64,000 bases of DNA, from contig CAXMWX010000005.1 of NCBI GenBank assembly GCA_963422205.2, positions 352,001 through 416,000 of the forward strand. The letters are read 5' to 3'. Both the position numbers and the translations under genes were made by a program. Numbering within the stretch: the stretch's first letter is position 1; every line of letters begins with the position of its first letter. This DNA comes from Gammaproteobacteria bacterium. GTDB taxonomy: Bacteria; Pseudomonadota; Gammaproteobacteria; Eutrophobiales; Eutrophobiaceae. Below the pieces are notes generated by a model that was not told the origin of the DNA, made no database searches, and saw nothing but the letters and a program-made list of their open reading frames with translations. Positions 22,735 to 60,416 of this stretch are shown here, piece by piece.

Positions 22735-23199
22735 ATGAAATTGAACAGCAAAAAAATACTGATCGGCGTGGCTACGTTAGCCGAGTTGGAAAGTTCCCGG
22801 CATACCGAGGGTGTTGATTATCTGGTCTATCTTGAGGATACCCCTGATCTGTTTATCAAAGATCATGTCAACAACATCAATTACATCAATGCGGCCGCCC
22901 ATGGCTTTTACAGCGAGTTATGGGAGCGGGAAAAAGACGTGATTTCGCCTGTTGCTACTCCCTTAACGCTGTTAAACAGCAAGGTATTTGCTTTTGTGCA
23001 GCATAGCAAAAACGGCTTTTTTGAAAAGGCCGACCAGGCTGAATTCGATATCAAGTTCATCGTTCGCAAGCTCAATGTGAGCGACATGACGATTGCTGCC
23101 CGGTATATTGACCCTGATGCCCTTGCTGAAGTACAAAAAATCATCGACAGCGTAAAGCCAGATGCACCTCTCCAGCAGACTATGGGGCCGGGTATGTGA
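22735..23199 (+). CDS. Hypothetical protein with C-terminal ...TMGPGM tail
   Basis: 154-aa ORF; no family recognised. Confidence 0.65.
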   Translation: MKLNSKKILIGVATLAELESSRHTEGVDYLVYLEDTPDLFIKDHVNNINYINAAAHGFYSELWEREKDVISPVATPLTLLNSKVFAFVQHSKNGFFEKADQAEFDIKFIVRKLNVSDMTIAARYIDPDALAEVQKIIDSVKPDAPLQQTMGPGM

Positions 23200-23214
23200 T
23201 ACACAACTCATACG

Positions 23215-23284
23215 TCTTCTGTCACTTTTAGCTTATAGGCTAAATTTAGTCTATTTACTAAACAGGTCTAAAAGTGACAGAAGA
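23215..23284. repeat. 17-bp perfect inverted repeat with nested palindrome
   Basis: TCTTCTGTCACTTTTAG ... CTAAAAGTGACAGAAGA; the spacer contains the near-palindrome ATAGGCTAAATTTAGTCTAT. Confidence 0.9.
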
Positions 23285-23450
23285 TAAATTATTGTTTAAA
23301 AACCCATTATAGTCTGGAGCTTGGTTACCCACCACCTTACTTGGCCGGAAGAGATGAATAAAAAACTGAATTTAGACTCTGAGTAGCTGATGTTGAAGCT
23401 GTTGATTATCTTGAATCAATGGCCATCTGTATAGGAATGTTTATAGCAAG

Positions 23451-23741
23451 TTAATCAAATATTTTAATGACTATTCCCGCCACAGACGCTGCTACAACTG
23501 CAGCCGTACCTGCAACTGCAAACAGGCTTTTCCAAAAGCCAGTCCTGATTTTTTCTATTTCAACTTTAATGGACTCCATCGCAGTTTTCAGAGATTCCAT
23601 ATCAGCCTGTGTTGCCAAGTGCTGCACATGTGCTTCCAGCCTGGCTACTCTTTCGCCTATATCTCTGCCATCTCCACCGCCTGCCGAGGATGGTGCAGAA
23701 CGGTCAGGGTTTGGTGCTAATGAGTGTATGTTATCAGCCAT
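23451..23741 (-). CDS. Small coiled-coil protein with C-terminal TM helix
   Basis: GGGDG...ERVARLEAHVQHLATQADM coiled coil followed by a hydrophobic helix. Confidence 0.6.
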   Translation of the reverse strand: MADNIHSLAPNPDRSAPSSAGGGDGRDIGERVARLEAHVQHLATQADMESLKTAMESIKVEIEKIRTGFWKSLFAVAGTAAVVAASVAGIVIKIFD

Positions 23742-24209
23742 AGTCCAGCCATTCCCAGAGATCACCATTCGTGAAACCCGAGTAGGCGGAATTCAGTTTG
23801 AAAACAGCGCCACTGTCTTTGTGATTCTCGCTGTTTATCCCAAGAGTTTCGCAAATTTTACCAGTAGTTGTGTTTTCAGCGCGAATAGAAATACATGCGC
23901 GTCAGTATGATGAGCATAATGATCTGGATAGTGCTCCTCAACCCTATATCCCTGCTTTCATTTGATGGGTTGTCAATAACAACAAGGTAAACAGCCATAG
24001 CCTATATTCTCAATTCTCTATTTGCATTATTGTTATCCTATGCAAGGATAGCCACTCATAAGTGCACATTGTTAATCTACTAGCTATTCTTAGTATTACA
24101 TATTATCAGGTATAGGGACAAGTTTCGCCCGTCATAAGTACCGATGATGCACGTTTCTATGAGCGTATAGGCCGCAAGATGGCGATACATGAACGGTACT
24201 CCGCTTGTC

Positions 24210-58360: not shown

Positions 58361-58573
58361 TTGCAAAACAAGCAGCACATCAGCTACTATAGGGGGTGTT
58401 GATACATGATTATTGAAAAATTTTCTTCTTTCCGGGACATTCTGACGTGGATATTGGCCTTGGGTATCATAGGCATTGCAATTGCGTTTATCTATGCCGT
58501 TTGGGCCAAACCACCGAAATTTTGATTTTTCAACCTAAAATTTGGTACAACGACAACAGCAACTAATAGAGAT

Positions 58574-58927
58574 ATGGTCGCTTTTTTCAAGTCCCAAAAG
58601 TGTCCGCAAGGATGGAGTTCCTATGATCTTGTAGAAGGTCGCTATATTGTGGGGACAGCATCGACGGGCAAAGTTGAGGAAATGATCGGCAACAAGCTAA
58701 GTCCAAATGAAAACAGACCCACTGGATTGCATACTCACGAAACCACCGTTTATAAAATTCAGCACAATGGAATCTCTGAAGATGGGCTAGATACGAAGTT
58801 TCGTGGTTCTTCAAACGTAAAAATCAATGTAGCTTTTGCCAGTAAAACTAATAAACAGCCTGGTTTAAAAAGGTACGAACGCGCCCTATATCACGTTGAA
58901 AGCATGTATATGCACGTCAGCGGCTAA
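58574..58927 (+). CDS. Phage tail-collar-like fragment / hypothetical
   Basis: VAFF....CP.GW.....GRYIVG...H.H pattern. Confidence 0.4.
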   Translation: MVAFFKSQKCPQGWSSYDLVEGRYIVGTASTGKVEEMIGNKLSPNENRPTGLHTHETTVYKIQHNGISEDGLDTKFRGSSNVKINVAFASKTNKQPGLKRYERALYHVESMYMHVSG

Positions 58928-59003
58928 TCGTACTGCCGCCCCAAACGCTCATAACTGATCATGAGCAACTCGCAGACAAGGTAAAATGAAAAGCATTATT
59001 ACA

Positions 59004-59801
59004 TTACAGGCACATACTTGGGGTTATGTCTGGTTTTTTAGATGATGTCGCCGTGCATGGTGTGATACCCAGTGCGTGCCAGTAAGGTTTGAAACCATTT
59101 TCAATCGCCTGACATACCAGCTTGATAAAAGGGTCATAGTTTTTTTCTGTATGCACTTTATCCAGGGCATGGTAGTAGAAAAAACGTTGATCTACCGCAA
59201 TAATGGCAGCGGGATAACCGGCCTTCATCAGTTCAGCATTCATCAATAAACGTGATGTTCTGCCATTCCCATCAATAAAGGGATGAATCCCGATGAAATC
59301 GGCATGGACACGTGCTGCCCTCTCAACAGGATGCAGTGTCAGCGCTTCTTCCGTATACCACCGAATAAAATTCTGCATCTCTCCTGCTACCACTACTGGC
59401 TCTGGAGGAATATGCCTGGCACCACCAATCCTGACCGACACCTTACGGTATACGCCAGCATTATCATTATCGATTTGCTTTAAAACCAGTTGATGAATAT
59501 TCTTAATATGCCATTCAGACAAGGGCTGGCTTTCCTGCACCAGACTTTCAATATAGTTAATAGCATCACTATGATTGATGACTTCAAGATGCTCTCTCAT
59601 CGTCTTACCACCCACAGTGATGCCCTCAAGCACCACTTTGGTTTCCAGAAGCGTCAGTGAATTGCCCTCAATGGCATTTGAATGATAAGTCCAATCCAGC
59701 ACAAGGTTCTCTCTCAGCCTGGCGAGAACCGCATCAGGTAACGGACGATGCTCGTCCAGTTGCCCTTTAAGCCGCTCGAGTATTCTATAGTCTTGCATCA
59801 T
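59004..59801 (-). CDS. Fic family protein (class II, N-terminal inhibitory helix)
   Basis: TYHSNAIEGN, HPFIDGNGRTSR; tail KKPDITPSMCL. Confidence 0.93.
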   Translation of the reverse strand: MMQDYRILERLKGQLDEHRPLPDAVLARLRENLVLDWTYHSNAIEGNSLTLLETKVVLEGITVGGKTMREHLEVINHSDAINYIESLVQESQPLSEWHIKNIHQLVLKQIDNDNAGVYRKVSVRIGGARHIPPEPVVVAGEMQNFIRWYTEEALTLHPVERAARVHADFIGIHPFIDGNGRTSRLLMNAELMKAGYPAAIIAVDQRFFYYHALDKVHTEKNYDPFIKLVCQAIENGFKPYWHALGITPCTATSSKKPDITPSMCL

Positions 59802-59825
59802 GCCGCCTTACTATGATGTTACAGA

Positions 59826-60416
59826 CTAATCCATGCACTTTCTTATGGTTGTAAACCCAGACTCGCCGATAAGATGAGGCTTGCTATCGTGATTGATCTG
59901 GCACATCTCCTCCAGGGCATACAGCGTTTTCTGCGGGAAACGATCCAGCGGATAGTAGTGGGATATGATATCAACGGCCTGTTTATAGTCGTTGATCTGT
60001 AAGTGTGCAAGCAGATACCGAATGTCACCGTAATCGTGGAACGAATTTTCCAGCCGCATTGACAGACATTTCATTGCCAGCAGGTACTGGGGCTGGGCAA
60101 CCATCACCTTCAGATGGCTAAGTGCCAGGAAAGGGGCAAACGTACCTTTATCACTCAGATAGCCCTTGACACCATCATTGAGCCAGTTCTTATCAATACG
60201 CTTATCTGAGGCAACCTTTGTGGCCGCTTCCCGGATCGTTGTCGCCGGACTAAAAAACGCATCTATATCCTGGGTCGTTGGCCTCACCTCATACACCAGG
60301 CACATGACAGCACCACCAACCAGATAAATATCTCCTTGCACATCGTCTTTTTGCAGTTCCCGGTTGAGCTCATGGAATAAGACTTCTACCTGTTCTTTAC
60401 CAAGACCTGTTGCCAT
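59826..60416 (-). CDS. Nucleotidyltransferase (DUF6036-like)
   Basis: LVGGAVM, R..T.DIDA, WLND.VKG, YLLAMK. Confidence 0.85.
   Translation of the reverse strand: MATGLGKEQVEVLFHELNRELQKDDVQGDIYLVGGAVMCLVYEVRPTTQDIDAFFSPATTIREAATKVASDKRIDKNWLNDGVKGYLSDKGTFAPFLALSHLKVMVAQPQYLLAMKCLSMRLENSFHDYGDIRYLLAHLQINDYKQAVDIISHYYPLDRFPQKTLYALEEMCQINHDSKPHLIGESGFTTIRKCMD

Follow-up and report, generated by a model that had tools for sequence, protein, structure and literature searches.

In toxin-antitoxin-chaperone (TAC) systems, short C-terminal extensions called ChAD (chaperone addiction) tails occur on unrelated toxin-antitoxin (TA) families and have one common reader, and in type IVA secretion the BID signal combines a folded domain of about 100 residues with a positively charged tail. 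The translocation signals of Dot/Icm type IV secretion system (T4SS) substrates are described as having a hydrophobic residue or Pro at position -3 or -4, a depletion of Asp/Glu from -1 to -6 and an enrichment of Ser/Thr from -3 to -11 (PMC11763710, section 2.14). The Bartonella VbhT and Bep proteins have been presented as a case in which the Fic toxin of a TA module became a T4SS substrate through a C-terminal addition (PMC5675462), and the “conjutome” of F and pED208 as a set of plasmid and chromosomal proteins, TA components included, that reach recipient cells through C-terminal or internal signals (PMC11288057). The present analysis deals with a stretch of 64,000 nucleotides on contig C7 of a gammaproteobacterial genome (the whole stretch is referred to as the window and the genome, 2.99 Mb and 98% complete, as G000), of which everything to the right of about 21.7 kb is what remains of an IncI/Dot-Icm-type (mating-pair formation class I, MPF-I) integrative conjugative element loaded with toxin- and defence-type enzymes. 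Several of these enzymes end in the tripeptide Pro-Gly/Ser-Met behind a short polar tail, and we tentatively read this PGM tail as a relic export or recognition tag of the element, with export as the predicted function; on the sequence data available, this falls somewhat short of probable.

The ending P-[GS]-M, a motif defined post hoc from the data, closes five proteins of this island: the small nucleotidyltransferase (NTase) orf154 and the two Uma2 proteins (GPGM in all three), Fic395 (SPGM) and HipA439 (TPSM). Near-variants are found in Fic265 (TPSM followed by CL) and in a protein of 311 aa (PMGM). Over the whole genome, seven of the 5833 six-frame open reading frames (ORFs) of at least 100 aa have the strict ending, namely the five on the island, a third Uma2 copy (C7:276998-277615) and a shadow ORF within a 535-aa gene. 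A Fisher test of island against remainder (5/81 vs 2/5752) gives p=9e-9, and p=2e-7 when Uma2 is counted as one family (4/81 vs 1/5752). When the ORFs of at least 100 aa are reduced to a non-overlapping set, 6 of 2537 carry the ending, all six on two remnants of the island (five in the window) and none among the core proteins of the genome; with a threshold of 40 aa the count is 13 of 23,397 ORFs, five of the 13 being on the island. This enrichment over the host genome was expected by an earlier note on the same DNA, which had proposed, from the sequence alone, that unrelated toxin enzymes of the island share appended tails. The host lineage at large does not favour the PGM ending: searched for in 31 family genomes, the DNA pattern that encodes PGM-TGA (CCNGGNATGTGA) has a few occurrences per genome, as chance predicts. 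There were more than 220 matches, and of the 50 that were inspected only one closes a long ORF, that of a core gene resembling electron transfer flavoprotein-ubiquinone oxidoreductase (ETF-QO); in genome G007, none of seven further matches lies at a gene end. Antitoxins have no tails of this kind, and the tails are confined to toxin-type island cargo, as the earlier note had it. No published description of the motif turned up in literature searches aimed at other questions. As a separate observation, the GroEL of G000 (C5:74913-76559) has a Gly-Met-rich end (..GGMDGMGGMGGMM) reminiscent of the island proteins that close in MGM or PGM.

Comparison with homologs bears out the further claim that the tails go past the normal end of the domain. 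The 58 homologs of orf154 all lack the tail and stop at ..IIxSVK, 13 residues sooner; in the AlphaFold model (pLDDT, the per-residue confidence score, 92.4 overall) residues 141-154 have a pLDDT of 66-68 and no secondary structure. The best match of this protein in the PDB is the MenT1 toxin (E 2.6e-4), a fold that makes orf154 another toxin-type enzyme. The extension of Fic395 is missing from 119 of 119 listed homologs (60-65% identical), which end 3-6 aa past the conserved GGGRSTSYRL, and that of HipA439 from 119 of 119 listed homologs (44-52% identical), which end where its last 14 residues start. For Fic265, the C-termini of homologs from 300 genomes of the class were too diverse to place the usual end of the family. 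Fic395 and HipA439 have no close orthologs in G001, G007, G025, G033 or G034, the best matches being 62% identical for Fic395 and 33%, over part of the protein, for HipA439. Family matches are clear for HipA_C (E 1e-40 to 1e-47), Fic (E 1e-16 to 1e-24) and Uma2 (E 1e-23), and PADLOC labels Fic395 and Fic265 as SoFic, Uma2 as PDC-S03 and HipA439 as PDC-M03A. By catalytic domain, the carriers are thus members of toxin- or defence-type families (HipA, Fic/SoFic, MenT-like NTase, Uma2), their toxicity being predicted. The proposal of shared tails holds for the P-[GS]-M subset; the endings SSPEP, SGLSP, LSSTP and GPELS, which the earlier note had included, have no common motif and the orthologs in the second genome described below end otherwise. 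Two of the gene starts given there are also slightly displaced, and lie at 40413 instead of 40419 and at 56551 instead of 56569.

A scan of genome contigs for DotA retrieved one related locus, on the 2.63-Mb chromosome of a second genome (G423), whose DotA is 60% identical to that of G000 in the best segment and 64% by global alignment; in a sample of the class, DotA is present in 85 of 400 genomes, the best being only 28% identical. Queries with orf154 and with the coupling protein of the element gave no matches in metagenomes. The sample comprises two islands only, which are kin and non-independent. The G423 island is syntenic with that of G000. Its ortholog of orf154 (82% identical) ends TMRPGM and that of Fic265 (80%) ends TAPGM-stop, two Uma2 proteins end GPGM and RPGM, another HipA ends SPGM followed by SI, the ortholog of NTase179 ends GPGF, and proteins of 209 and 368 aa end MPGL and SMGM, respectively. 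The strict pattern closes 4 of 63 island ORFs vs 0 of 63 flank ORFs, and a relaxed pattern, also chosen post hoc (P[GS][MFL] or MG[MV], with at most two extra residues), 9 vs 0. Between the orthologs of orf154 and of Fic265, 80-82% identical, PGM is retained and the preceding linker altered. The codons differ as well: the orf154 genes end CCG GGT ATG TGA and CCG GGC ATG TAA, the Fic265 genes have CCA AGT and CCA GGT, and over the carriers the third positions (CCG/CCT/CCA; GGT/GGG/GGA/GGC/AGT) and the stops (TGA/TAG/TAA) vary with a constant peptide, which points to selection on the PGM peptide rather than on a DNA site. Some copies look decayed, in particular Fic265 (+CL), NTase179 and the G423 HipA (+SI).

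From the ending, its appended state and its conservation we infer a signal role, in which the tag would be a linker 12-25 residues long, unstructured and polar or rich in Pro, with Pro-Gly/Ser-Met as its last three residues and a free carboxyl end, carried by at least four unrelated families (the MenT-like NTase orf154, Uma2, Fic/SoFic and HipA) and recognised by one of the element's own proteins. The foremost candidate for this reader would be the type IVB coupling-protein complex of the element, because the tag is found only on element cargo, is terminal and unstructured, has Pro at -3 and few acidic residues, and has precedents among TA toxins and in conjugation. While the element was active, the tagged enzymes would have been exported via the conjugation channel; with this channel now broken the tags would be relics, some of them already decaying. 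The features of Dot/Icm signals, which are loose criteria, were counted by hand in the four proteins orf154, Uma2b, Fic395 and HipA439 only: Pro is at -3 in all four tails, Asp and Glu are absent from -1 to -6 in three of four (Uma2 has Glu at -6) and each tail has one to three Ser/Thr in -3 to -11. The tails are the last 12-25 residues past the usual end of the family, which fits the location of Dot/Icm signals in the unstructured last 20-35 residues. To this extent the earlier proposal of a T4SS-type C-terminal signal is plausible. A stricter form of the reading, in which P-G-M with a free carboxyl after a disordered linker would be a portable export tag read by the MPF-I/type IVB coupling complex, we regard as doubtful.

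A number of observations weigh against the reading of the tail as an export tag, most of them concerning the machine that the earlier note had credited to the element and of which DotA/TraY is intact. In G000, IcmL is broken by a TAA codon, IcmK is a 153-aa fragment, neither TrbI/DotG nor the CagE/VirB4 domain was found, and the single type IV coupling protein (T4CP) contains an in-frame TAG after codon 205, in a stretch that is unchanged in contigs of two sequencing runs of one study, either of which may be the source of the assembly. The two halves of the DotD fusion of G000 are in G423 two genes about 6 kb apart that enclose DotC/TraI, a DotB-like ATPase, a TcpQ-like gene and a split secretin, so that G000 must have deleted that stretch. 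In G423, which keeps DotD, TraI and the DotB-like ATPase, the T4CP is interrupted elsewhere, by an in-frame stop after codon 543, the secretin is likewise split, and IcmL and TrbI gave no matches. The MOB-P relaxase domain (PF03432) was found in neither genome. Dot/Icm translocation needs a functional type IVB secretion system (T4BSS) in the same cell, and that of G000 is broken and that of G423 incomplete. In G011, a family member with IcmL and TrbI matches, the 100 kb around these matches contain neither a P[GS]M end nor any homolog of an island protein. Moreover, an E-block (3-5 Glu within -10 to -17) is present in none of the four tails, Uma2 having only E-P-E; Dot/Icm signals are loose profiles, unlike the nearly fixed tripeptide of the tails; the strict-pattern enrichment in G423 is weak on its own (p=0.06); and G007 (97% complete), which has no DotA, nevertheless has a tail on four of its eight Uma2 copies (PKM, SKM, SGM and PGM). 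One of these tailed copies occupies the tpiA-side hotspot where the G000 remnant is also found, and so could be a leftover in its own right. Since the set of DotA/TraY, DotD, DotC/TraI, DotB/TraJ, IcmK, IcmL, DotG and a coupling protein is complete and intact in neither genome, the element is a remnant and not a working MPF-I conjugative member. In favour of the export reading, the T4CPs of G000 and G423 are, apart from the stops, 89-94% identical, and this identity, with a different single stop in each, indicates that the machine was under selection until recently; it probably still worked not long ago and then failed separately in the two genomes. The nearest plasmid T4CPs, 40-43% identical, are on conjugative plasmids.

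That the tails persist in G000 and G423, both with a dead secretion machine, and that G007 has tailed Uma2 proteins, would be accounted for by a regulatory or degradation tag read in the producing cell, where the free Pro-Gly-Met end would be bound by a protease, adaptor or chaperone. Toxic defence effectors would thereby stay at a low level or inactive until triggered, for example by an infecting phage or when the element is lost. Every carrier being of toxic or defence type (SoFic, PDC-S03 and PDC-M03A according to PADLOC, and a MenT1-like fold for orf154) is also in keeping with this explanation. We nevertheless consider it unlikely, as the ending is absent from the core proteins of the genome and, in family relatives, from other genes (1 of the 50 inspected matches), and the decayed copies argue against strong present selection. 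We know of no bacterial degron of PGM form.

The tail could also be a functionless 3'-end patch, derived from the multi-copy Uma2 or from one ancestral tail, spread by short-patch or illegitimate recombination and not yet decayed. Uma2 (PF05685) offers an obvious source, with 10 copies in G000 (C3, C5, C9, C11 and C7) and 8 in G007 (C1), often as tandem pairs. Variable acidic tails are general in this family, and the Pro/Glu-rich tail ending in Met belongs to some copies only: seven of the ten in G000 (on C3, C5, C9 and C11, off the island remnants) have none and stop right after LWPD... The terminal Met and the flanking and downstream DNA are inherited among Uma2 paralogs of G000, G423 and G007. 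The Uma2 tail is therefore, from these comparisons, inherited within its family and not a new acquisition, contrary to the suggestion that the tails had been acquired independently. Smith-Waterman alignment of the 3'-terminal 48 nt of 37 genes on the island showed that the ends of orf154 and Uma2 share 14/15 nt and those of HipA439 and Fic265 19/22 nt with one frame-shifting gap, both scoring above all 3000 shuffles, and some tails may thus have been copied between genes. In a blastn-short comparison of -100/+200 nt around 11 stops with the genome, no shared DNA was found downstream of the stops, the tail similarity being limited to the last 4-7 codons; the statement that the tails share no DNA beyond the Uma2 pair holds only in part, failing for these two pairs of ends. 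The patchwork of small repeats that makes up the island (see below) is further in favour of such patches. Against them, a patch would need to have inserted in frame, exactly at the 3' end, in four or more unrelated genes, the peptide is constant over varying third positions and stops, the DNA after the stops is unshared, PGM is kept between orthologs in which the linker is altered, and 14/15 nt is not unusual given the same peptide (a chance of about 0.08 by our own estimate). We judge this explanation to be quite improbable. Chance or an ORF-calling artefact, for which the post hoc definition of the motif and the one shadow ORF among seven raw matches could be invoked, is barely credible given the Fisher probabilities with and without collapsed duplicates, the recurrence in G423 orthologs and further G423 proteins, and carriers that are all domain-bearing genes.

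Two other accounts of the shared ends were considered and rejected. A mobile-element end or an attC-like (integron cassette) site at the tails, the latter calling for a conserved core with an inverted repeat at or behind each stop, has only the two short end matches and unrelated small repeats to show. As for translational coupling to a downstream ORF that starts at the GTG of ATGTGA, the frames concerned span 13, 15 and 88 codons and show no conservation.

The window (Table 1) begins with ordinary chromosome, bases 1 to about 21,600 comprising a tRNA cluster, cysS, nadC and a TonB-dependent receptor. The mosaic island then extends to the right end of the window and 2.1 kb beyond, as far as a tRNA-Thr adjoined by an integrase remnant. 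Besides DotA/TraY, the DotD-PilV/shufflon fusion, a recombinase and the split topoisomerase III, it contains fragments of MmeI and of an rve transposase and a class-3 lipase, and its toxin-type genes are three HipA, three Fic and a Doc fragment, several nucleotidyltransferases and two Uma2. At a distance of 100 kb (C7:256-284.6 kb), adjoining a tRNA-Leu, the element has left a second remnant, which holds IcmL, IcmK, the coupling protein and the third Uma2 copy. This copy is inside a repeat of about 4 kb (window 47353-51959 = C7:276998-281600) with Uma2, orf118, orf297, orf208, orf190 and the start of an rve gene, which could have mediated the splitting of one element into two pieces. Integrase remnants with the common end ..MIYYNPTPTEIAERLG adjoin the tRNA-Thr and the tRNA-Leu of G000 and also border the G423 island (C1:320165-321019), and are probably attachment ends; in locus coordinates the integrase/tRNA edges are L006:2143-2218 and L005:9637-9721. 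Small repeats are scattered among the toxin genes, of 32 nt (40216-40247/41822-41853), 53 nt (38466-38518/36649-36701) and 114 nt (57955-58068 vs C7:261752-261865), which makes the island a patchwork of partial duplications. Elsewhere, G012 has a tandem array of 378-bp period (C1:627504-637258) with 26 copies of CCGGGGATGTGA, mostly 378 bp apart with one larger gap.

Table 1. Position, strand and characteristics of the genes discussed (window coordinates unless preceded by a contig name)
Feature	Coordinates	Strand	Characteristics
orf154, MenT/AbiEii-like minimal nucleotidyltransferase	22735..23199	+	Folded domain to about residue 140, then 13-aa tail ending TMGPGM
Class-3 lipase	24210..25352	-	380 aa, GHSLGG; between orf154 and Uma2a; no tail; no ortholog in the G423 island
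Uma2a (PF05685; PADLOC PDC-S03)	25493..26143	-	Pro/Glu-rich tail ending ETGPGM
DotA/TraY family protein	26684..28990	-	Intact ORF of 768 aa; TIGR04346 372.6 bits (cut-off 100); sole copy in the genome
311-aa protein	32350..33285	+	After a Toprim ORF; no Pfam family; long polar tail ending DSMPMGM; G423 ortholog ends RMQMGV
Topoisomerase III	34246..36095	+	Broken into ORFs of 509 and 114 aa; break elsewhere in G423 (171 + 441 aa)
NTase179	37071..37610	+	Ends SSPEP; G423 ortholog (81% identical) ends SPGPGF; may be a decayed tail member
HipA443	38974..40305	+	YMGM 8 residues before the end, then a CAA codon; YMGM not kept in G423 ortholog; might be a decayed MGM-type end
Fic395 (DUF4172+Fic; PADLOC SoFic)	42011..43198	-	Extension of about 25 aa ending KYPSPGM; TAG stop
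DotD-PilV fusion	43281..44474	-	N-terminal part of DotD lipoprotein fused to PilV/shufflon-like C-terminal part; deletion scar in transfer region
Tyrosine-recombinase-like protein	44820..45746	+	Weak Phage_integrase match; G423 counterpart 77% identical
Doc/Fic fragment	46138..46599	+	Internal ELRPG, listed in the earlier note as an echo of the tails; G423 match of only 43 aa
Uma2b	47353..47970	-	Tail as in Uma2a (ETGPGM); within the 4-kb repeat also at C7:276998-281.6k
115-118-aa protein, unknown family	48150..48506	+	Also in G423 (C1:356842-357189); neighbour of Uma2b in G000 and of the 209-aa ..MPGL protein in G423, both of which bear tails
255-aa protein	55466..56233	+	SLSPGI 20 residues before the end, another such echo; no G423 ortholog
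HipA439 kinase toxin	56551..57870	+	Extension of about 14 aa ending SQTPSM; XRE antitoxin gene upstream (56328-56576)
Fic265 (SoFic-like)	59004..59801	-	Ends ..ITPSM then CL; Cys codon at the position of the stop in the G423 ortholog
Coupling protein (T4CP)	C7:272533-274791 (L004:17533-19791)		Second remnant
tRNA-Thr	C7:418143-418218		Island end

If the stricter export reading is true, the ending would be a bacterial equivalent of the sorting signals formed by a terminal tripeptide, and HipA, Fic, the MenT-like NTase and the Uma2 nuclease would be weapons or establishment factors delivered to recipient cells. Such substrates would then be predictable from sequence alone, and the tail would give a direct handle on the recruitment of TA and defence toxins as exported cargo. 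If the tail is instead a degradation or regulatory tag, it would represent a new way for a mobile element to control a whole set of toxins at once.

Among the systems introduced at the outset, ChAD tails resemble the island tails in being short extensions of unrelated families; they are, however, borne by antitoxins, with a SecB-like chaperone gene adjacent, whereas the island tails are on toxins, and no SecB-like family appeared among the Pfam matches of the part of the island ORFs that was scanned. A bipartite signal of the BID type was discarded, the additions being only 12-25 residues long, unstructured and located on a type IVB/MPF-I element. Dot/Icm signals of Legionella and Coxiella effectors are closer, since they too occupy the last 20 or so unstructured residues, are rich in Ser/Thr and poor in acidic residues from -1 to -6, carry Pro or a hydrophobic residue at -3/-4, and are found on unrelated enzymes that include Fic and HipA-like proteins; Dot/Icm is a virulence system, whereas the tails described here belong to a conjugative-type island with a broken machine, known from its sequence. 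As described, the Bartonella VbhT/Bep proteins, in which a FicTA toxin is joined to a BID domain and served by a conjugative-type T4SS, are like the Fic proteins of the island in being toxins with a C-terminal addition. The conjutome signals, in the account cited and for the F, IncN and IncP systems it covers, which differ in type from that of the island, are defined by charge and hydrophobicity and not by a shared terminal tripeptide. The substrate signals of T4SSs being notoriously fuzzy, a near-invariant tripeptide would be the first simple tag of a type IVB or conjugative system that can be read from sequence.

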